Shown: positions 3,648 through 48,828 of the stretch, piece after piece
Layout: every line of letters begins with the position of its first letter
Position numbering within the stretch: position 1 is the first letter of the stretch
Sequence record: MW598459
Strand: one strand, 5' to 3'
DNA length: 64,000 nt
From: Escherichia phage vB_EcoM_RZ
Made by a program: the position numbers and the translations under genes
Notes under the pieces: model-generated
What the model saw: the letters and a program-made list of their open reading frames with translations, nothing else
The model's database searches: none
What the model was told of the DNA's origin: nothing

Positions 3648-3700
3648 CCGTAGAACCATTATACAATGCTATAAATAAAAGCATATCATCGGTTCTACGG
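3648..3700. repeat. Inverted repeat with 10 bp arms (CCGTAGAACC / GGTTCTACGG) enclosing a 33 nt loop that carries promoter-like elements
   Basis: Arms at 3648-3657 and 3691-3700 are perfect reverse complements; the loop contains TATAAATA on the plus strand (3670-3677) and TATAAT plus a TGCTTTT box on the minus strand. Confidence 0.55.
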
Positions 3701-3758: not shown

Positions 3759-3766
3759 TATAAATA
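3759..3766 (+). promoter_or_regulatory. T4-type late promoter TATAAATA upstream of gene 19
   Basis: Exact TATAAATA about 50 nt upstream of the gp19 ATG at 3819. Confidence 0.6.
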
Positions 3767-4311: not shown

Positions 4312-4319
4312 TATAAATA
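4312..4319 (+). promoter_or_regulatory. T4-type late promoter TATAAATA upstream of gene 20
   Basis: Exact TATAAATA immediately after the gp19 stop. Confidence 0.55.
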
Positions 4320-12457: not shown

Positions 12458-12555
12458 AATCTCTCACTTTTGATGTTATAAATATCATTATAAATTAGAC
12501 CCACTATACTTTCTTTCTCTGAAAGGAATTAATAGTCGCAAAGGGGTCTAGAACC

Positions 12556-14691: not shown

Positions 14692-14709
14692 GATGAACCT
14701 CGGTTAGTG

Positions 14710-14717
14710 TATAAATA
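14710..14717 (+). promoter_or_regulatory. T4-type late promoter TATAAATA upstream of uvsW
   Basis: Exact TATAAATA about 30 nt upstream of the uvsW ATG at 14746. Confidence 0.5.
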
Positions 14718-14745
14718 TAGATATATTTATTACCTTGGAATCATC

Positions 14746-16245
14746 ATGGATATTAAAATCAACTTTCTAAATTTTAGTCACGTGCATGTTGAATGTGAAG
14801 ATGGAATCTTCTACGAACTCCGTGATTACTTCAGCTTCGAAGCTGAAAACTATCGCTTCAATCCAAAGTTCAAGCAGGGAGTTTGGGACGGACGAATCCG
14901 CCTCCTGGATTACAACCGTAAATTACCATACGGTTTGGTTAATCAAATTAAAAAGTTCGCTGACCAGTTTGGCTATTCATTCTGGATTGACCCACAAATC
15001 ACCGAGAAAGAAGAAATCTCTCGCGAAGAATTCAACAAATGGGTCGAGTCAAAAGAAATCTATTCAGGCAATACCAAGATAACGCCCCATTGGTATCAAT
15101 CTGACGCCGTATATGATGGTCTGGTCAACAGAAGAAAGATTCTGAACTTACCTACGTCTGCAGGTAAAAGCCTCATCCAGGCGCTTCTGGCGCGATATTA
15201 TCTCGAGAACTATGAAGGCAAGGTGCTTATCCTTGTTCCTACAACTGCGCTTGTTGACCAGATGATTAATGACTTTGTTGATTATCGGCTTTTCCCTCGT
15301 GCAGCTTGTCTGGGTATTCGTTCTGGGACTAAACGCGATTCTGATGCGATGATTTATGTATCGACTTATCAGACGGCTGTAAAACAACCTAAAGAATGGT
15401 TTGAACAGTTTGGCCAGTTTATGAATGACGAATGCCACATGGCTACAGGTAAATCGATTTCGACGGTTATCGAAGGCCTTACGAATTGCATGTTTAAATT
15501 TGGTCTGTCAGGTTCACTCCGTGATGGCAAAGCCAACCTTATGCAATATATGGGTCTGTTTGGTGATATCTTTAAACCAGTATCAACATCTAAATTAATG
15601 GAAGATGGCCAGGTTACTGACCTTAAAATAAATAGTATTTTCCTTCGTTACCCTGATGAATTCACCGTTAAAATGAAAGGTAAAACTTATCAGGATGAAA
15701 TCAAGGTAATTACAAAAGCTACACGCAGAAATAAATGGGTAACAAACCTTGCCCTCAAGCTTTCTAAAAAAGATGAAAACGTCTTTTTGATGTTTAAGAA
15801 TATCGAGCACGGTAAATCGATGTTTGAAATGATTAAGGAAGCTGGTCATGAAAAAGTGTATTATGTTTCTGGGGAAGTCGATACCGAAACTCGTAATGCT
15901 CTGAAGGTCATGGCAGAGAATGGAAAGGGAATTATTGTTGTAGCTTCATATGGTGTATTCTCGACGGGGATTTCCGTTAAAAACCTCCATCATATTATTT
16001 TCGCTCACCCAGTCAAGTCAAAGGTAATTGTACTCCAGACAATTGGTCGTGTGCTTCGAAAACATGAATCCAAATCGACCGCAAACGTGTGGGACATTGT
16101 GGATGATATGGGGGTCAAACCCAAATCAGCAAACGCTAAAAAGAAATATGTTCATATTAACTTTGCGCTTAAACATGCACTAGAACGTATTCAGCGGTAT
16201 GCAGACGAAAAATTCAATTATGTAATTAAACAGGTGGAAATATAA
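14746..16245 (+). CDS. uvsW: UvsW DNA/RNA helicase
   Basis: Translation from the ATG at 14746 (MDIKINFLNFSHVHVECEDG...) matches the T4 UvsW N-terminus; helicase motifs present (LNLPTSAGKS Walker A, DECH box); the GTG at 14707 in the ORF track lies inside the promoter. Confidence 0.92.
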   Translation: MDIKINFLNFSHVHVECEDGIFYELRDYFSFEAENYRFNPKFKQGVWDGRIRLLDYNRKLPYGLVNQIKKFADQFGYSFWIDPQITEKEEISREEFNKWVESKEIYSGNTKITPHWYQSDAVYDGLVNRRKILNLPTSAGKSLIQALLARYYLENYEGKVLILVPTTALVDQMINDFVDYRLFPRAACLGIRSGTKRDSDAMIYVSTYQTAVKQPKEWFEQFGQFMNDECHMATGKSISTVIEGLTNCMFKFGLSGSLRDGKANLMQYMGLFGDIFKPVSTSKLMEDGQVTDLKINSIFLRYPDEFTVKMKGKTYQDEIKVITKATRRNKWVTNLALKLSKKDENVFLMFKNIEHGKSMFEMIKEAGHEKVYYVSGEVDTETRNALKVMAENGKGIIVVASYGVFSTGISVKNLHHIIFAHPVKSKVIVLQTIGRVLRKHESKSTANVWDIVDDMGVKPKSANAKKKYVHINFALKHALERIQRYADEKFNYVIKQVEI

Positions 16246-17532: not shown

Positions 17533-17560
17533 ATTATACAGCCATAAAATTAAAGCATTA
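17533..17560 (-). promoter_or_regulatory. Middle promoter with MotA box (TGCTTTA, 12 nt spacer, TATAAT) upstream of uvsY
   Basis: Minus strand reads aaTGCTTTAattttatggctgTATAATgg; T4 uvsY is likewise transcribed from a middle promoter. Confidence 0.6.
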
Positions 17561-17947
17561 ACCGTTTTGACTTAGCTGAATCCTGATTTGTTCGAGGGTA
17601 TCAGGGTCATCAACAATGCTGAACTGAACTGTTACGATAATGGAGTTATCATCATACATAGGGACAACTGCCACCTGTAGATTGCTTATCCTTGGTTCGA
17701 AGTTCCGCACCGCGGAGACGATGTTGCGTTTAATGGTATCTGTGATTAATGGAGTGATATTCTCGAAAAGCTGATTACTTATATCACATCCAAATTCAGG
17801 CATAAAAGGCCTTGACCCTTTTCTTGTGGTGATTATTCCCAAAAGACTGTTCTTAACAGACCTTGCACCAGTTACTTTAGCAACGTCTTTATCCCAACTT
17901 GTAGATAAGTCGGGAGACACATCGCTATACATTTTGTTTATATTCAT
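17558..17947 (-). CDS. 25: Baseplate wedge protein gp25
   Basis: 129 aa; strong match to T4 gp25 (SLLGIITTRKGSRPF.PEFGCD.S.QLFEN.TPL). Confidence 0.9.
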   Translation of the reverse strand: MNINKMYSDVSPDLSTSWDKDVAKVTGARSVKNSLLGIITTRKGSRPFMPEFGCDISNQLFENITPLITDTIKRNIVSAVRNFEPRISNLQVAVVPMYDDNSIIVTVQFSIVDDPDTLEQIRIQLSQNG

Positions 17948-18604
17948 TTACATAAACTTAAAGAATTCTTTAAGCCCCTTAATTACATGGACAGAATGTG
18001 CTCCGCACTCGCAAGAGATAGGAATAGCCATTTGGACCTGTGGCTTGAGAAGTTCTTCTGTTAGTGCATTTATATCATCGAGGGTAATTGCATTGTACAG
18101 GTCCTCGATTTCAGCTTCATTTAAGTCATCAACAACGATGCGCTCACCGCCTTCCGTGATAATATATTCGATACAACAAGCAATCATTTTTCCTTTATCA
18201 CCATCTTCAAACAGTCCAGGATAACGGAATTTAATTTTAAACGCCCCGAAATCACGAATAACTTCAGACTCATCCACGATGCTTGCGCGACTTATAGTCA
18301 CAGGAATATCTTGTTCCTTTCCGCACTCACATACCCATGTATGCTCGACGTTAACAGCTCCGAGACTATTTGCCCAGAGATTAATAAGAAGCAGCTCGGC
18401 TTCCTGTTTGTTTAACCCTTTAGCATCAGTGCATTTATTAAGCAGTTCAATTATTGCAGGTTCCATACGCTTTTCTAATTTTGCCTGAAGCAAATCTTTG
18501 TATTCGCGCAAGGTAAAAGCCCTACAATTTATAGTTTTATTTTTAATTTGGACAATAAATTCATAAGTCATAATTTGCTCCTTTACTGTATTTATAAATA
18601 TCAA
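17948..18604 (-). CDS. 26: Baseplate hub protein gp26
   Basis: 218 aa ORF immediately upstream of gene 25 on the same strand, divergent from gene 51 as in T4. Confidence 0.8.
   Translation of the reverse strand: MIFINTVKEQIMTYEFIVQIKNKTINCRAFTLREYKDLLQAKLEKRMEPAIIELLNKCTDAKGLNKQEAELLLINLWANSLGAVNVEHTWVCECGKEQDIPVTISRASIVDESEVIRDFGAFKIKFRYPGLFEDGDKGKMIACCIEYIITEGGERIVVDDLNEAEIEDLYNAITLDDINALTEELLKPQVQMAIPISCECGAHSVHVIKGLKEFFKFM
18589..18600. promoter_or_regulatory. Palindromic bidirectional late promoter (TATTTATAAATA) between divergent genes 26 and 51
   Basis: The 12-mer is its own reverse complement and contains TATAAATA on both strands (plus 18593-18600, minus 18589-18596). Confidence 0.55.
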
Positions 18605-18624
18605 TAAAGATAAAAGGGGATTCT

Positions 18625-19377
18625 ATGGCCAATATCGTAAGATGTGAAATGCCAGACGGAGTTCATCGTTTCAAACCGTTTACAGTCGCTGATTACCGTG
18701 ATTTACTGCTTGTGCGAAACGACATGAACAACAAACCCGTCGAAGAACAAAAACAATTATTAGACGAACTGTTGGAAGATTATTTTGGAGAGTATCCAAA
18801 AGCATGGAGGCCTTACATATTTCTGAAGGTATTCACTTCCTCTATCGGTAAGACAAAAGTCCCGGTAGCGTTTGAATGTCAAAAATGTAAAAAGACAAAG
18901 CAGACTTTGTTTAACCTGAATCAGGGTCCATTAGTAAATCCAACGATGGAAACCGCCGGGATAAAAATACAATTTAAGTTCCCTGAAGTGGAATATAAAG
19001 ATAAGTCAGAGCTTGTCTTGAATACCATCCAGACTGTCGAAGACTCGGAACAAAAATACAATTGGGAAGACCTTCCTGAAGAAACAAAGATGCAGGTTAT
19101 CGATGCAATTGATATAGAGAGCCTCGAAGCACTCCTTAAGAAAATGCATTCGGTTTATATTCCATTTACATATGGCTGTTGTGAAAAGCACAAAACCGAA
19201 TACACTGACCTGCTTGACGTCTTTAAGCTTATCCTTAACCCGGATGAAGTCTTTGTATTTTATCAAATTAACCACTTGCTGGTAAAGAATCAATATTCGC
19301 TGGATAGCATCATGCATATGATTCCTATTGAACGAGGTATTGCTTTATCACTAGTTGAGAAGGACTTGAAAAAATGA
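18625..19377 (+). CDS. 51: Baseplate hub assembly catalyst gp51
   Basis: 250 aa (T4 gp51 is 249 aa); Cys-rich; position and orientation match T4. Confidence 0.8.
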
Positions 19378-20543
19378 CAGTTAAATCTATGCAGCGCGAA
19401 GGCTTTCCTAATATCAGCATCCGCCTTTACGAAGATTATGATGCATGGCTTGAGCACCGTTTTGTGGAACTAGCTGCTACCTTTACAACGTTAACCATGC
19501 GCGATTCCCTTTACGGAAGAAATGAAGGTCTCTTGCAATTCTATGATACGAAAAACCTACATACAAAAATGAATGGTGAACAGGTTATTCAGATTTCCGT
19601 TAAGAATGCCAACTCTGACCGAACCCAATCTAGAATATATGGAAGTAAACACTTTGCCGTTTCCGTGGATTCAAAGGGTGATAACATAATTACAATTCAG
19701 TTGGCTCCTATTCACGAAATTGAAGACTTGAAATTTAGTCGTATGTTTTACCCGAGCGTACAGGAAACATTAGTCGAAATGGCCGGGGTAATTTATCAAG
19801 ATAGACCATTACTTTCCCCACCAATAAACGGCATAAACGTTTATGCTCCTAACGTTCCATGGTGTGATTCGATGCACCAATATATGGAATTCATAAGGGA
19901 AGTTGGCCTGTCGGTAGAAACTGATAAATTTGTTTTTGTATGGGAAGATATTGATGGGATAAGTATCCAGGATTATGAATGGTTAACATCACAAGAGCCA
20001 ATTAATTTTGTGGTGGGGGAACCTCGATTGGTTGGGCAATTTGTACAAAACCTGACTACTCCTTTAGCCTTCGATTTTGAATGGTTAACAAAGGCAAACC
20101 AACACACAAGAAAACCATACGAAAACGCAACTGTGTATGCGCATTCATTCCTTGATAAGAACGCAACCAGAATAACTTTTGGGGAAGGACAAAACAGTAT
20201 TCTGGTATCTCGTTCCGGTGGCTATGCAGATTACACATACCGAAATGGTTTCGAGGAAGCACAACGATTGATAACTATGTCACAATACGACGGTTACGCG
20301 CATTGCAAAACATACGGGAACTTTGAACTGACCCCGGGTGATAAGATAAATTTCTTTGACCCTAAGAACCAATTCAAATATGATTTTTACGTAGACGAAG
20401 TTATTCATGAAGTGAGTAACAATACATCAATTACAAACCTCTATATGTTTACCAATGGTAAGCCTATCGAAGTTGAAGAACCACCGAAGGTTAAAAATGA
20501 ACTTAAAACTGATTCTGCCGACGAAGAAAATACAGCTGGGTGA
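19374..20543 (+). CDS. 27: Baseplate hub protein gp27
   Basis: 389 aa (T4 gp27 is 391 aa); ATGA overlap with gene 51. Confidence 0.88.
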
Positions 20544-21015
20544 TAAAGAGATTCATGTTCCTAAGCTTGGTCTCAAGCATCACAATCTGATTAAAAACGA
20601 ACCTAACCCATACGCTGCATTAAGAAAGATTATGCAATCGATATTCCCTAATCTTACAGCAGCCGAATCCGACTTTGTATCTTTACATCTCCTGGAATTC
20701 AATGGTAAGCTAAAAGACAAACGCGAGATTAATGGATTTACATATAAGCTGGATGATGTTTATATCTGTCAGCGCCTTGAATTTTCTTATCAAGGGAAGA
20801 CATTTAAATTCCGCTCCAATAAACCGTATGAAGAATTCGGACCAGTTGACAATCTCCTGGAGACCCTTTATCTCGGGGAAGATGTTCCAGACTTTCTGGA
20901 TATGCCTGCTTTTGTTGCTAAGTGGGCAGACGATATCACAAGCACATTAGCAATCCCGGGCCCGAATGGTCCTGTTAAGGGGTTACTGAAAATAATGGAA
21001 CTCCTAAATGAATAA
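20497..21015 (+). CDS. 28: Baseplate hub distal subunit gp28
   Basis: Start taken at the ATG at 20497 (GAAGG ribosome-binding site), giving 172 aa (T4 gp28 is 177 aa); the upstream in-frame ATG at 20455 is an alternative start. Confidence 0.75.
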
Positions 21016-22753
21016 GAACTCCGAACAAACGAGCTTCAGACGCGGTGGACCGAATAAAAAGCTTATTGAAGAATTAGCACCACAAAGGAGGGCGGAAGCC
21101 CTCTCTGCCGAACAGAATGACGAACTATCGAATCTGAATACAACTCTTACAAATACTCAGGCCGCAACCGAACTTGTGTCGGAAGCTATTGAGGATAAGG
21201 GTAATCAGATTATCGAGAATATCCAAACCAATAATGGAGTCCTCCAGGATATCAGTGCTGGGGTCGAACTGACGGCCGAAGCCACCGAGAAGACTCAACA
21301 AGGGATTAAAAACCTCACGGATATTCTCTCGGATAAACTCGACAAACTCAGTGCAATGATAAGCGGTAAACTAGGCGTCACGTCTCCTGTGGCTGGTTCT
21401 GAAAGCCTTAAACCTGTGGAGGATGCATTACCAGAGCCTGAAGAGAATAAGCCCACGGCGAGCGTTCCAGAGCTCATACCGCCAGAAGAACAAAAGCCAG
21501 ACGCAGACTTCATTCCAGAACCAGAACAGCCAAAAACCGATGCAGAAGGTAAAGAGACTAATACCTGGTCACTTGGTGATAAGCTTGATACCCTTTCGAA
21601 GATAACCGAAAAAGGATTTAAGGCATCGGTTTCTGTTGCTGACCGAATCTCCGGGATGCTGTTCAAATATACAATTACGGCAGCAGCCGAAGCAGCCAAG
21701 CTTATTGGTGGATTATTGTTGTTGGTATTCGGTATCGATGCGATACGAGTTTACTTCCAATATTTCATGAAGCAATTCGAAAAAGGATGGGCCGAATTTA
21801 ATGACAAGTTCAAAGAATGGGGACCGTTACTCGAAGGACTAATGACTTGGGCTAAGAATGCTGAAGCGATGTTTAGTGAAAGGAACTGGTTGGGATTAGC
21901 TGAAGCTATTATCCGTGGGATGGTTAACTTAACGAAGAACATGGCTCAACTTCTTATGCTTGGGATTTCGAAACTGATTTCAGCTATCTTAAACAAAATC
22001 CCTGGGATGGGTGATTTAGCAGATAATGTGGAAGCCTCGGCTTTGATGTCTTATCAGCAAAATACAGGGGCAACTCTGGATGATGAAGACCAAACCAAGA
22101 TAGCAAAATATCATGACAAACGTTCGGCCGAAGCAATGGAAGCTGCAGAGAAGATGAATAAGAAGTATAAGGATAAACCTGAACTAATTAATCAAGCCGA
22201 AAAATATGGTAACCTTACCAAGGAACAAGCTGACCAGCTTCGCGCGGGTGGTATTGACACAAGCTTCAGAGACCTTCCAGAAGAAGAACGTCTGGACTAT
22301 TTCAAGAAGCGTGACAAAGCGCAGGCTGATATTATTCGTTTGACCCAAACTGCTGACAACCTAATGAAGCCAGATGCGACCGATAAAAAGAATGCGCTGG
22401 AAATGAGAGCTAACATTGAAAAACAATTAGCTGACCCTGCTATGGCAAAAGGTGGAGCTCCGAAAGACTTGAATATACGTGCTCTCCTGGAAAAACTTGA
22501 TAAGTCTCTTGAGAAGTTCAAAGATGAACCGAAGGTTAAACCGCCAGACATTAAGACTTCTCCGGATGCGCAACAAGCCGCGAAGGTTGATGAAGGCATG
22601 AAGGCCAAAGAAAATAAATACAAGGATGCACCGGCCCAGGCCCAAATTAACACAGTCAATAATATTCAGAAGACTTCCAGGACGCAATACAATATGCCTC
22701 CCCAAAGTTCAACCCCTGCCCCTGGCATGAGACAGGCTACGAGAATTAACTAA
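21008..22753 (+). CDS. 29: Baseplate hub and tail length determinator gp29
   Basis: 581 aa (T4 gp29 is 590 aa); position between 28 and 48. Confidence 0.85.
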   Translation: MNKNSEQTSFRRGGPNKKLIEELAPQRRAEALSAEQNDELSNLNTTLTNTQAATELVSEAIEDKGNQIIENIQTNNGVLQDISAGVELTAEATEKTQQGIKNLTDILSDKLDKLSAMISGKLGVTSPVAGSESLKPVEDALPEPEENKPTASVPELIPPEEQKPDADFIPEPEQPKTDAEGKETNTWSLGDKLDTLSKITEKGFKASVSVADRISGMLFKYTITAAAEAAKLIGGLLLLVFGIDAIRVYFQYFMKQFEKGWAEFNDKFKEWGPLLEGLMTWAKNAEAMFSERNWLGLAEAIIRGMVNLTKNMAQLLMLGISKLISAILNKIPGMGDLADNVEASALMSYQQNTGATLDDEDQTKIAKYHDKRSAEAMEAAEKMNKKYKDKPELINQAEKYGNLTKEQADQLRAGGIDTSFRDLPEEERLDYFKKRDKAQADIIRLTQTADNLMKPDATDKKNALEMRANIEKQLADPAMAKGGAPKDLNIRALLEKLDKSLEKFKDEPKVKPPDIKTSPDAQQAAKVDEGMKAKENKYKDAPAQAQINTVNNIQKTSRTQYNMPPQSSTPAPGMRQATRIN

Positions 22754-22761
22754 GGAATAAC

Positions 22762-23856
22762 ATGAAAGTAAAAGAACTCGATATTGATATTGCGGGTTTG
22801 TTTAACGGAGGTTCTAAGACCTCTGCGGGGCAGTCAAAAGCTGCCCCGACTCAAGCTACTATTGTGGCGCAATATCCAGCAGAACGAGCTTCCGGTAATG
22901 ATTCTTCAGATGATATGCGAGTTAATGACCTTTATAAAAATGGTCTGTTATTCACGGCATACAATTTCAGTTCAAGAACATCTCCGGAATTACGCTCAGA
23001 TAGGTCAAGCCAATTGACTTCATTAAAGAACGTTTCAAATGGTGCTTCATTTAACCCGGTTAAAAGTTTAACATCTTTTGCTAAATCGAAATTAACCGGC
23101 GCAGGCTCAACGGGTAAAAGTTTTGATTCAAACGCTGTTGCAAATATCCTATTGCCTCGTTCGAAGTCTGATGTAGAATCCGTGTCGCATCGATTCAATG
23201 ATGTTGGTGAATCTCTTATTACGAAAGGGGGCGGCTCAGCCACCGGTATTCTTAGTAACATCGCATCGACTGCAGTTTTTGGCGCACTCGAATCAGTTAC
23301 AAACGGTGTAATGGCCGACCACGGTGAACAGATTTATACAACCGCACGAAGCATGTATGCTGGCCCGGATAACAGGACAAAAGTTTATACCTGGGAAATG
23401 ACTCCACGTTCGGCCCAGGACTTAATCCAGATAGTGAAGATATACGAGATTTTTAACTATTACTCCTATGGGGAAACAGGTAAAAGTTCGTTTGCTTCCG
23501 AGTTGAAAGATAAAATCGACACATGGTATAAATCTACCTTCAAAAAAGAAGCAATTGATAACTTTGATGGTAAGTTACTCGGTGAAGAGATAACAAGCTT
23601 CCTAACGAACGTTCTGGTGGTCTCTAACCCTACTATCTGGTATATCCGCAACTTCGGTGATACAAGCTCGTACGATGGTCGTGGGGAGCTATTTGGGCCA
23701 TGTCAGATTCAGAGCATAAGATTTGATAAATCTCCGGATGGTCATTTCGGCGGATTAGCTATTGCTCCTAACCTGCCATCGACTTTTGTACTTGAAATCA
23801 CTTTCCGTGAAATCATTACGCTTAACCGTGGCTCGTTATATGCGGAGGGTTTCTAA
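22762..23856 (+). CDS. 48: Baseplate tail tube cap gp48
   Basis: 364 aa, same length as T4 gp48; synteny. Confidence 0.85.
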   Translation: MKVKELDIDIAGLFNGGSKTSAGQSKAAPTQATIVAQYPAERASGNDSSDDMRVNDLYKNGLLFTAYNFSSRTSPELRSDRSSQLTSLKNVSNGASFNPVKSLTSFAKSKLTGAGSTGKSFDSNAVANILLPRSKSDVESVSHRFNDVGESLITKGGGSATGILSNIASTAVFGALESVTNGVMADHGEQIYTTARSMYAGPDNRTKVYTWEMTPRSAQDLIQIVKIYEIFNYYSYGETGKSSFASELKDKIDTWYKSTFKKEAIDNFDGKLLGEEITSFLTNVLVVSNPTIWYIRNFGDTSSYDGRGELFGPCQIQSIRFDKSPDGHFGGLAIAPNLPSTFVLEITFREIITLNRGSLYAEGF

Positions 23857-24815
23857 TGTTTACTTTACAAGAATTCCAAACGCAGGCGATTAATATCGAC
23901 TTACAAAGGAATAACCTTTTTAGTGTGGTCTTCGCGACCACACCTTCCTCCAAATCTCAGAATCTTCTGGACCAGTTTGGTGGCGCATTATTCAGCAACC
24001 TTCCTGTTAACTCAGATTGGTTTGGTTTAACGCAAGGCGACTTAACTCAAGGGATAACAACTCTTGTTACTGCTGGGACACAAAAGCTTATTCGCAAATC
24101 AGGGATAAGCAAATATCTTATCGGGGCAATGAGTAACCGTGTTGTGCAATCATTATTGGGGGAATTCGAGGTTGGTACTTACCTGCTTGATTTCTTTAAT
24201 ATGGCCTATCCAACGGCTGGTCTATTGGTCCACTCTGTTAAGCTTCCGGATAACACGTTGAACTACGAAATGGACCTCAACCATAACGCACCAAATATCA
24301 AGATAACAGGAAGAGAATATTCTCCATTGGTATTGAGCTTTAGAATGGATTCAGAGGCAGGGAACTACAGAGCATTTAACGATTGGGTCAACTCTGTACA
24401 GGACCCAGTTACCCAGCTAAGGGCTTTGCCTGAAGACGTTGAAGCTGATATTCAGGTTAACCTTCACTCACGAAATGGTTTGCCCCATACGGTTGTTATG
24501 TTAACTGGTTGTGTTCCTGTAAGTGTATCAGCGCCTGAATTGAGTTATGAAGGGGATAATCAGATAGCTACATTTGATGTGACTTTTGCTTATCGCGTTA
24601 TGTCAACTGGTGCGGTGGGAAGAGCTGCTGCATTGGAATGGTTAGAAGATAAGGTTATTAAGGGTGTATCCGGTATTAGTTCAGATAACAACTTGAACGC
24701 AGAAGTTGCCAAATTGAGCCGCTTGTCTGGTGCCCAATCTGGATTAACAAGTCTGTACAATACGTTCACTGGTTCTGGGAGAACAGTCTCTGGTGGAAGT
24801 CAACGTATATTATAA
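23856..24815 (+). CDS. 54: Baseplate tail tube initiator gp54
   Basis: 319 aa (T4 gp54 is 320 aa); gp19-like tube-fold protein; synteny. Confidence 0.85.
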   Translation: MFTLQEFQTQAINIDLQRNNLFSVVFATTPSSKSQNLLDQFGGALFSNLPVNSDWFGLTQGDLTQGITTLVTAGTQKLIRKSGISKYLIGAMSNRVVQSLLGEFEVGTYLLDFFNMAYPTAGLLVHSVKLPDNTLNYEMDLNHNAPNIKITGREYSPLVLSFRMDSEAGNYRAFNDWVNSVQDPVTQLRALPEDVEADIQVNLHSRNGLPHTVVMLTGCVPVSVSAPELSYEGDNQIATFDVTFAYRVMSTGAVGRAAALEWLEDKVIKGVSGISSDNNLNAEVAKLSRLSGAQSGLTSLYNTFTGSGRTVSGGSQRIL

Positions 24816-31140: not shown

Positions 31141-31506
31141 TTAGATATCAAATTCATTAAGAACTACATCAAAGATTGCTTCCAGGTGTTCAGGTTTTGC
31201 TTTGTTGCTCAGGATATGACGAATCCAAGTTTTAACCAGAAGCTTGCGATTAACACCATTCCAGCAAGGATGAGTCCCTAAATCACGCTCACGGAAATCA
31301 TCATCTAATGCGATTTTGAATACCGAACCTTCCATCGTGATTGAAAGAGTGATACCATTTTCAAATCGCATATAAACGTAGTTAGGAGTCATATACTGTT
31401 CAATTTCACACACTGAACCGTTTTGATGTTTCCACAAGCAAATAACTTCAGAAGAACCTGGGATGCAGTTAGAAACATATTTGCGTTCAAAGTTGATGTA
31501 GTTCAT
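31141..31506 (-). CDS. Hypothetical protein (121 aa)
   Basis: ORF preceded by the conserved CTGGAGAATAAA-ATG leader. Confidence 0.5.
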   Translation of the reverse strand: MNYINFERKYVSNCIPGSSEVICLWKHQNGSVCEIEQYMTPNYVYMRFENGITLSITMEGSVFKIALDDDFRERDLGTHPCWNGVNRKLLVKTWIRHILSNKAKPEHLEAIFDVVLNEFDI

Positions 31507-31577
31507 TTTATTCTCCAGTTGTTTTCATTTGTTGGTACAGGTCTATAATATCATAACCTGTACCAAAGTAAACTGTT

Positions 31578-31946
31578 TTATGCGACTTTAATCCAATTAT
31601 CTAAATTTAATTCACCCTTAGCTTTCATTTTTTCAATCAGAAGGTCTGCAGTGGTGCGACCATTTTGATACCATGTAACATCTTCAGAATAACCAGTTTC
31701 TTCATCTTCATAGGTCTTACAACGAATCTTACCAATAATCAAAGTTTTCAGTTCGTAGGTATCACCAGTAAAAAAGTTTGTTACCATAATTTTCCAAGAG
31801 AAGTCATCAGAAGGACCTTCTGGAGTCATGCAACCTACAAATTCAAACTGCTCTTTATACAAGTGCCATTGCATCTCTTTAGTTTCGATTGCTTTGTAGC
31901 CGTCGTGGTCTTTACCTTTGATGTATGAGTTAAGATTGATTTTCAT
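31578..31946 (-). CDS. Hypothetical protein (122 aa)
   Basis: ORF preceded by the shared promoter-leader cassette. Confidence 0.5.
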   Translation of the reverse strand: MKINLNSYIKGKDHDGYKAIETKEMQWHLYKEQFEFVGCMTPEGPSDDFSWKIMVTNFFTGDTYELKTLIIGKIRCKTYEDEETGYSEDVTWYQNGRTTADLLIEKMKAKGELNLDNWIKVA

Positions 31947-31987
31947 TTTATGCTCCAGTGTTTTATTGTGTAACTCAGTATGAAATC

Positions 31988-42743: not shown

Positions 42744-43468
42744 TTATTAACCTTTATCCTTCCTCTGACCCATCCATCGGGGATAATTTCAGAGGATTCA
42801 ATTAATTTATTTGTAAACCCGTCATTAATACAGATTTTACCACGGGCACCTTTATATTGTCGTGGAGTTATTTTATCAAATGTGGGTTGAAGCGAATATG
42901 ACCATCTAAATCCATAGGCATATTGAAATTTTCCACTCGCACAATACTTGATGTTTGATGCGTTTCCATTTACGGACCGAGCTGCTTCTTGCAATGACCT
43001 AAATTTTTCAACAAATTCACCATCAAGAGTAAATTGATAAATTTCTGTAGATGGAACAGCTAACTTATTCTTTTCACTTACAATTTGCTTAGATTCTTCA
43101 CTGTGATGCTTACCCAACATACCACGGGGATGTGGGTTATTTTTCCAGTGTTCCTTAAAGAATTCAGAATTTGCTTTGGCAAATAGCTTTCGATGGAAAC
43201 TATACAAGTTATTATTAATACGATTTCCAGCTTTATCCGTTGCCATTAAAGTTAGGGCCGAGACCAATCCAAAATGACCGGGATTTATTTTGCATAAAAG
43301 CAAATGAGCAATAAAATGTTCTCGAGCTGTTAACTCGACAAGGTTTGTTCTTTCATCAGTACCGCCCATACATCTTGGGATAATATGATGAATCTCTTTA
43401 TATTCGGTTAAAGGTTCCCGGGTTTTACCCCGGGATATTAAATTATTATAAATGTTTTGATAATTCAT
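42740..43468 (-). CDS. mobE: Free-standing HNH homing endonuclease between nrdA and nrdB (MobE-like)
   Basis: 242 aa; HNH motif EIHHIIPRCMGGTDERTNLVELTAREHFIAH; same intergenic position as T4 mobE; TAATG overlap with nrdA and ATGA overlap with nrdB. Confidence 0.8.
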   Translation of the reverse strand: MNYQNIYNNLISRGKTREPLTEYKEIHHIIPRCMGGTDERTNLVELTAREHFIAHLLLCKINPGHFGLVSALTLMATDKAGNRINNNLYSFHRKLFAKANSEFFKEHWKNNPHPRGMLGKHHSEESKQIVSEKNKLAVPSTEIYQFTLDGEFVEKFRSLQEAARSVNGNASNIKYCASGKFQYAYGFRWSYSLQPTFDKITPRQYKGARGKICINDGFTNKLIESSEIIPDGWVRGRIKVNK

Positions 43469-48396: not shown

Positions 48397-48587
48397 TATA
48401 TTTTCCTCAAATATTTTTTAACCATATAATATTGAAATTCAAACATTTTGGAATCAATTACCCAAATCTGACGTTTAGGACACTCATTCAAACGCACCGC
48501 GGAACATCCAGAGGAAAGGAATGAATACTGTTCCTTTTCTGTTTCAGAAAGACATGTTCTTAAAAAGCGGAAAAATAAATCATGCAT
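48396..48587 (-). CDS. Hypothetical small protein (63 aa)
   Basis: Start taken at the ATG at 48587, overlapping the stop of the upstream 82 aa gene by 8 nt; the 139 aa ORF-track version would run out of frame across that gene. Confidence 0.35.
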
Positions 48588-48828
48588 TTTTATTTGCCTT
48601 AACGACTTTCCAGTCAGCTTTAAATTGGTCAACATCAGAGTGGTGAATCCAGAAACCAGATGAGCTACCATCTTCATAAAGAGGACAACCATCACACTCA
48701 TCTTTCCAACCCATTGCACACAAAGTTTCTTCAGCTTTTTCCAGAGCTTCTGGATTGTTACCCTGGATTGTGAAATACCATTTACCTTTAACTTCTGAAT
48801 CTTTGATGCTCTCACGTTGTAATTTCAT
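48580..48828 (-). CDS. Hypothetical protein (82 aa)
   Basis: Preceded by the shared early promoter-leader cassette with CTGGAGAATAAA-ATG; Cys-containing (CAMGW...ECDGC). Confidence 0.5.
   Translation of the reverse strand: MKLQRESIKDSEVKGKWYFTIQGNNPEALEKAEETLCAMGWKDECDGCPLYEDGSSSGFWIHHSDVDQFKADWKVVKANKNA

Follow-up and report, generated by a model that had tools for sequence, protein, structure and literature searches.

Background

Divergent transcription of the base plate gene clusters of bacteriophage T4 from overlapping promoters was reportedly described, with mapping of the transcripts, by Scarlato, Storlazzi, Gargano and Cascino (Virology 171:475-483, 1989). Our literature search for the T4 26/51 promoters, or for divergent or overlapping late promoters, returned no mention of them, and no promoter features are annotated in the T4 GenBank record.

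The late promoters of T4 are characterized by an 8-bp box, TATAAATA, located at -13 to -6 with respect to the transcription start (PMC1524935), and they possess no -35 element; among 50 listed sites, 32 carry the box in its perfect form (PMC2988020). The consensus tolerates A at the first position (PMC1524935, PMC2988020). The DNA that melts, just downstream of the box, is A/T-rich, and the gp45 sliding clamp is located at the upstream end of the activated complex, where it has been cross-linked at -39 and -36/-35 (PMC2988020). The clamp tracks along DNA, and its effect depends on which strand is nicked (PMC2988020). A different class of divergent promoters, which depend on sigma-70, has been characterized by Warman, Grainger and colleagues (PMC12825309). 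These bidirectional promoters comprise -35 elements and a pseudo-symmetric -10 element, mostly exhibit low basal activity, and are subject to steric competition only if activation in one direction is strong (PMC12825309).

Here we analyse the junction between the homologues of T4 genes 26 and 51 in a stretch of 64,000 nucleotides from Escherichia phage vB_EcoM_RZ (record MW598459), referred to below as the window. The spacer between these two genes contains a 12-mer, TATTTATAAATA, which we interpret, with a probability of roughly 0.88, as a back-to-back pair of T4-type late promoters whose 8-bp boxes have the central TATA in common. This feature is the orthologous copy of a long-studied T4 element: it is real, conserved and already known, because T4 possesses an identical sequence at the orthologous site and because the arrangement is said to have been reported in the 1989 paper.

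The likeness to the T4 26/51 pair comprises orthologous genes on both sides, an identical 12-mer, spacers of similar size (50 bp in T4 vs 53 bp here) and short leaders with a GGAG-type ribosome-binding site (RBS) in both directions. The two loci differ in the flanking intergenic bases and in the length of the predicted leaders (19 and 12 nt here vs 12 and 16 nt in T4), and there is no difference in kind between them. With T4-type late promoters in general, which depend on gp55, gp33 and gp45, the pair shares the exact 8-bp box, the lack of a -35 element and the location just upstream of genes for virion structure; most of those promoters, however, stand alone, whereas in this pair a box on one strand has four bases in common with a box on the other. 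The bidirectional sigma-70 promoters resemble the pair in that divergent starts (predicted in our case) flank a symmetric -10-type element, and in that polymerase can be accommodated in two orientations, of which one binding event would exclude the other (PMC12825309). In contrast to them, the 26/51 pair exhibits perfect symmetry, is of the type served by a phage sigma-like factor, has no -35 element and belongs with promoters activated by a sliding clamp. A specialist would recognise the pair at once, and its features are all as expected from previous knowledge of late transcription in T4.

Genes and spacer at the 26/51 junction

The protein encoded to the left of the palindrome exhibits 49.5% identity to T4 gp26 (tblastn), in an alignment that is collinear to within one residue, and the protein encoded to its right is 52% identical to T4 gp51. 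These homologies, together with the assignment of both proteins to Pfam family PF12322, bear out the first-pass annotation, which had named the genes as 26 and 51 and described them as divergent. The genes downstream of both boxes (Table 1) are late genes encoding virion components, with members of the gp26, gp25, gp51 and gp27 baseplate families among them.

The extent of the spacer was misjudged at first. A gap of 20 bp had been proposed, because the open reading frame of gene 26 was mechanically taken to begin at TTG 18604. The start supported by homology is the ATG at 18571 on the minus strand, which is preceded by AAGGAG, is used in the annotation of Escherichia phage DK-13, and agrees with the homologues of gene 26, all of which start at the equivalent position or at most three codons away. 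With the ATG of gene 51 at 18625, the intergenic region spans 18572-18624, i.e. 53 bp, and the palindrome is separated from gene 26 by 17 bp and from gene 51 by 24 bp. The annotation of gene 26 should be corrected to ATG 18571, as a start at TTG 18604 would swallow the promoter.

Table 1. Coordinates of genes, promoter elements and predicted transcription starts around the 26/51 junction of the window
Feature	Position	Strand	Remarks
Gene 25 homologue (baseplate wedge)	17558..17947	-	directly downstream of gene 26; PF04965; DK-13 annotation
Gene 26 homologue (baseplate hub / hub-assembly protein), 207 aa	17948..18571	-	PF12322, E 4e-57
Predicted leftward late start, A	18583	-	-13 to -6 rule (PMC1524935); 12-nt leader AAGGAGCAAATT
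Palindrome TATTTATAAATA	18589..18600		two late-promoter boxes back to back, central TATA common to both
Late-promoter box TATAAATA, gene 26 > 25 unit	18589..18596	-	
Late-promoter box TATAAATA, gene 51 > 27 > 28 > 29 > 48 > 54 unit	18593..18600	+	
Predicted rightward late start, A	18606	+	-13 to -6 rule (PMC1524935); 19-nt leader
Gene 51 homologue (hub assembly catalyst), 250 aa	18625..19377	+	PF12322, E 1e-58
Gene 27, 28, 29, 48 and 54 homologues	19374..24815	+	tightly packed behind gene 51

The two proteins encoded on either side of the spacer are paralogues, with 24% identity over 181 aa (E 1e-7) and an alignment that is collinear from residue 17 in both. Their genes are arranged head to head around the palindrome here and in tandem, in the order 51 > 26, in Pseudotevenvirus; an inversion separates the two layouts. 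We also considered the spacer as a mirror-image relic of an inverted duplication, and rejected this idea, as the two leaders align no better than shuffled sequences in seven out of eight lineages (for the window, 227 of 500 shuffles). The sole exception is Proteus phage phiP4-3, in which a 45-bp spacer (1153-1197 of the retrieved locus) is nearly mirror-symmetric, with AGTGTCTCCT and AGGAGACACT placed around the 12-mer, and in which none of 500 shuffles align as well as the actual leaders.

Two late-promoter boxes within one palindrome

The 12-mer occupies bases 18589-18600 and is its own reverse complement, i.e. a perfect 12-bp palindrome, which occurs once in the 64-kb window, compared to 0.01 copies expected from shuffles that preserve dinucleotide composition. 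An exact match to TATAAATA is present on each strand (Table 1), and direct inspection of the sequence and a motif scan have thus confirmed the earlier description of the element as self-complementary with a late box on either strand. Four bases at each end serve a single box: 18597-18600 belong to the rightward box alone and 18589-18592 to the leftward box alone. As a matter of string logic, TATTTATA can be followed by TATAAATA with at most four bases, TATA, in common, so the 12-mer is the tightest packing possible, and the pair provides a clean natural example of how closely two promoters can be placed. A form with a 2-bp insertion, TATTTATATAAATA, would keep both boxes intact, with a smaller overlap and with the palindrome broken.

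Exact copies of TATAAATA are enriched five-fold in the window (20 sites vs 3.99 expected), and no shuffle reached 20. After each DK-13 gene had been mapped onto the window by BLAST to obtain box-to-gene distances, 12 of the 20 boxes were found 18-53 nt upstream of the start codons of homologues of T4 late genes, namely 18, 19.1, 19, 20, 22, 24, uvsW, 26, 51, alt, 34 and 36. The distances at the junction, 25 nt to the ATG of gene 51 and 18 nt to that of gene 26, are both inside this range. The six bases downstream of the box also comply with the A/T-rich stretch known from T4, with five A/T in TCAATA on the plus strand and four in CAGTAA on the minus strand.

Other candidates for transcription of the two units are scarce. 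Within about 2 kb upstream of gene 51 no alternative box with at most one mismatch was found, and in the 2 kb upstream of gene 26 the only minus-strand candidate at the same threshold is the weak TATAAACA at 20757. A plus-strand scan for TATAAATA revealed no further exact late box in the stretch of genes 27, 28, 29, 48 and 54, and the one at 18593-18600 is the only exact plus-strand copy between 14717 and 54151. As the next exact box in this direction is thus not reached before 54151, the rightward half of the palindrome is the only consensus late promoter for the six-gene hub and baseplate cluster. For genome annotation, the palindrome pinpoints the one consensus late promoter that each baseplate-hub operon possesses. 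The window also encodes a homologue of the late co-activator gp33 (PF16805, E 1e-25), and genes 55 and 45 lie outside it. The proposal of a late promoter in each direction, made in the first-pass annotation, is accordingly supported by exact boxes, by normal distances to both ATG codons, by the presence of the gp33 gene, by the shortage of alternative boxes near either gene and by the invariance among 11 lineages described below.

Conservation of the 12-mer among T4-like phages

The window stems from a T4-like phage of the genus Gaprivervirus, and over 2 kb around the site it is 100% identical to DK-13 (Gaprivervirus, Tevenvirinae). Comparison with the T4 26/51 intergenic sequence had been suggested as a check from the outset, and the 50-bp spacer of T4 indeed contains the same 12-mer at the orthologous site (AF158101, 116450-116461). 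The same element has also been identified at the junction in RB69, in Dhakavirus UP19, in Marfa (Marfavirus), in Gelderlandvirus NP4, in Bragavirus, in Proteus phage phiP4-3, in Acinetobacter phage AM101 and in a record labelled Tegunavirus. In 31 retrieved loci it was found exactly once, at the 26/51 junction, and it is present in 20 out of 21 IMG/VR loci that had been retrieved by means of the gp26 protein, with no use of the motif.

For a set of 11 non-redundant T4-like lineages (T4 and 10 others), aligned with the motif as anchor, the 12 core columns are 100% identical, compared to a mean pairwise identity of 34% for 60 flanking positions (55 pairs). The most informative columns are those that correspond to 18589-18592: they lie outside the rightward box, in the region from -17 to -14 that exhibits no conservation in T4 late promoters (PMC2988020), yet they are invariant in all 11 lineages, whereas the neighbouring columns vary. 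As these four bases belong to the minus-strand box only, their invariance directly indicates that the leftward box is also under selection, and hence that both boxes are.

Variant layouts at the junction in more distant relatives

The survey of conservation extends to about 15 genera, and tblastn searches with gp51 of Aeromonas phages and of Pseudotevenvirus did not reach T4-like phages at a greater distance, for instance KVP40-like phages or cyanophages. Several arrangements other than the 12-mer were encountered. The 26/51 junction of Morganella phage MP1 contains a 14-mer palindrome, TATAAATATTTATA (866-879 of the retrieved locus), in which the boxes cross: the rightward box is located to the left of the leftward one, so that the two transcripts would cross each other. 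Acinetobacter phage Ac42 exhibits a hybrid of the 12-mer and the 14-mer, and in Aeromonas phages (Tulanevirus, Biquartavirus) the junction carries a 10-mer palindrome, TATTTAAATA. These layouts retain a box for each direction and differ in where the two are placed relative to one another. In the RB49-like phage Phi1 the rightward box alone is present in the exact form, and a search of its 26/51 junction with up to one mismatch allowed revealed no minus-strand box, which indicates that a leftward late promoter at this position is not universal. In Pseudotevenvirus, represented by Citrobacter phage Miller, genes 54 > 51 > 26 > 25 are all encoded on one strand, and there is no box at the junction.

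The half-sites have thus been found as a 10-mer, a 12-mer, a 13-mer and a 14-mer. That their spacing and order are free in relatives fits two independent promoters and argues against the operator of a dimeric protein. The first-pass annotation had proposed a single element shared by both transcription units; the part of this claim which says that both directions are served has held, but the layouts of the relatives indicate two overlapping promoters and not one element. Among the relatives surveyed, at least three different palindromic packings have evolved at the 26/51 junction, and this comparative picture, including the co-directional and degenerate states, is the modestly new part of our analysis.

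Alternative explanations

It could be argued that only the rightward box works, and that the leftward match arises simply from the A/T-rich palindromic sequence, with genes 26 and 25 expressed from elsewhere. Such a view would be in agreement with the very short leftward leader (12 nt), with the junction of Phi1, and with the Pseudotevenvirus order, in which gene 26 follows 51 on the same strand without a box between them. We regard it as improbable, because the four bases at -17 to -14 of the rightward box are invariant in 11 lineages, because within 2 kb there is no other minus-strand box with at most one mismatch from which gene 26 could be expressed, save TATAAACA at 20757, and because in MP1 the leftward box has changed sides with respect to the rightward one but has remained exact. 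Transcription of genes 26 and 25 might additionally be fed by a sigma-70 promoter, early or middle, inside the start of gene 51, where a sequence on the minus strand matches the consensus at 10 of 12 positions (-35 at 18648-18643, -10 at 18625-18620). This match, however, carries no weight, since there are five of its kind in the region and 6.6 are expected by chance. We find such a contribution no more probable than a one-directional promoter; even if it were present, it is in no conflict with the late-promoter reading.

The perfect dyad symmetry of the 12-mer also invites the interpretation that it is mainly the site of a dimeric DNA-binding protein, which would regulate both operons together. 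An obvious candidate is DsbA, as its gene is present in the window (PF11126) and as the protein has been reported to bind A/T-rich sites that overlap late promoters, with mention of two such promoters in T4 (PMC2988020). Yet relatives vary the spacing and the order of the half-sites, which the operator of a dimer would not tolerate; DsbA has a reported affinity in the micromolar range and its gene is non-essential (PMC2988020); and the two boxes fully account for the symmetry. We therefore consider this interpretation very unlikely, slightly more so than the two discussed above. The least credible explanation is that of a chance palindrome, or of a DNA or RNA hairpin, without any promoter role. 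The genome is A/T-rich and short A/T palindromes are common in such DNA, but an expectation of 0.01 per window, the invariance across lineages and the agreement with the late-box census all speak against chance, and the intergenic strand folds no better than shuffled sequences (-2.8 kcal/mol, z -0.21). The palindrome should be present in neither late mRNA, because it is located between the two predicted starts. Conservation and the census effectively refute this explanation. A hairpin or cruciform formed by the DNA of the spacer was likewise considered and dropped, as the fold is no better than that of shuffles.

Proposed mechanism of divergent late transcription

According to the reading that we prefer, i.e. 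two back-to-back late promoters, host RNA polymerase equipped late in infection with the sigma-like gp55, with gp33 as co-activator and with the gp45 sliding clamp as activator would recognize TATAAATA on either strand. Binding to the plus-strand box would lead to a start near 18606 and to transcription of genes 51-27-28-29-48-54, and binding to the minus-strand box, read from 18596 to 18589, to a start near 18583 and to transcription of genes 26-25. The rightward leader predicted in this way includes the RBS AAGGGG at 18614-18619. The leftward leader is short and its RBS, at 18583-18578, begins at about +2; leaders of similar length (11-16 nt) are predicted in T4, RB69 and others. The 12-mer is the most compact fit of two boxes, two short leaders and two RBSs into approximately 50 bp.

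The predicted starts lie on either side of the shared element, at a distance of 23 bp from each other. An activated complex that extends to about -40 would, in either orientation, cover approximately 18563-18626, i.e. essentially the same 60 bp, so that, judging by the published footprints, the site should accept one polymerase at a time. Coupled or competitive expression of the two operons may follow from these footprints. Such exclusion need not have measurable consequences, as in the sigma-70 bidirectional promoters the competition is conditional on strong activation of one direction (PMC12825309), although an effect is possible. Since the action of the clamp depends on the nicked strand, a clamp loaded from a nick in one strand should activate one promoter, and a clamp loaded from a nick in the other strand its counterpart.

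A bolder proposal is that the overlapped pair acts as a toggle, switched according to the orientation in which gp45 clamps arrive. As activation requires the non-transcribed strand to contain a nick or a primer end, opposite promoters would be fired by clamps that come from opposite sides, or from forks of opposite direction, and the two hub operons would fire alternately owing to steric exclusion. If this speculative and rather unlikely scheme were true, the ratio of gp26/gp25 to gp51/gp27-54 synthesis would be tied to the local polarity of replication, and the perfect conservation of the overlap would reflect selection for exclusion and not just for compaction. The T4 origin oriF(uvsY) is annotated at AF158101 115321, which places it about 1.1 kb away from the palindrome in T4, an observation that bears on the toggle idea only. 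The pair could help to address whether two clamp-activated promoters that overlap disturb each other's activity in vivo.

Other late boxes and differences between the window and related genomes

Divergent late genes separated by a gap of about 50 bp with two late boxes have been found at two further places. In T4, the 47-bp junction of gene 4 and gene 53 contains TATAAATA and TATTTATA in a crossing arrangement, 7 bp apart (AF158101, about 77350-77372). In the window, the 54-bp junction of inh and uvsW (14692-14745) carries TATAAATA on the plus strand at 14710-14717, 29 nt before uvsW, and AATAAATA, the commonest T4 variant, on the minus strand at 14724-14731, 33 nt before inh. At both of these divergent late/late junctions, the others that we examined, the layout is a crossing one, in which each box is located beyond the other as seen from its own gene, at a distance of 6-7 bp (6 bp at inh/uvsW). 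The crossing layout implies that the transcripts would overlap at their 5' ends; the 26/51 boxes, placed back to back, imply no such overlap.

Three exact late boxes, at 3670-3677, 3759-3766 and 4312-4319, are clustered before genes 19 and 20. Upstream of gene 19 there are two, at distances of 142 and 53 nt, and upstream of gene 20 there is one, at 49 nt; the cluster may include tandem late promoters for the tail-tube gene. Another exact plus-strand copy of TATAAATA is located at 12477-12484, in the gap between rnlB and small minus-strand ORFs. The next plus-strand gene, uvsW, is 2.2 kb away, and a transcript initiated there would be antisense to the minus-strand ORFs, hoc and inh.

In longer alignments the window exhibits 96-99% identity to phages DK-13, P479 and SP18, with several indels, and it is thus closely related to all three. 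The differences from DK-13 that involve indels or replacements are found at 16220-16241, 31193-31975, 42748-43304 and 48409-48598. Before position 16241 the coordinates of the two genomes are shifted by 693 bp, and a BLAST search of the window with the hypothetical 696-bp ORF that DK-13 carries downstream of uvsW returned no match. Approximately 780 bp of the window near 31.2-32.0 kb are without a counterpart in DK-13, and the nrdB-nrdA spacer also differs from that of DK-13, in which a homing endonuclease is annotated at this location.
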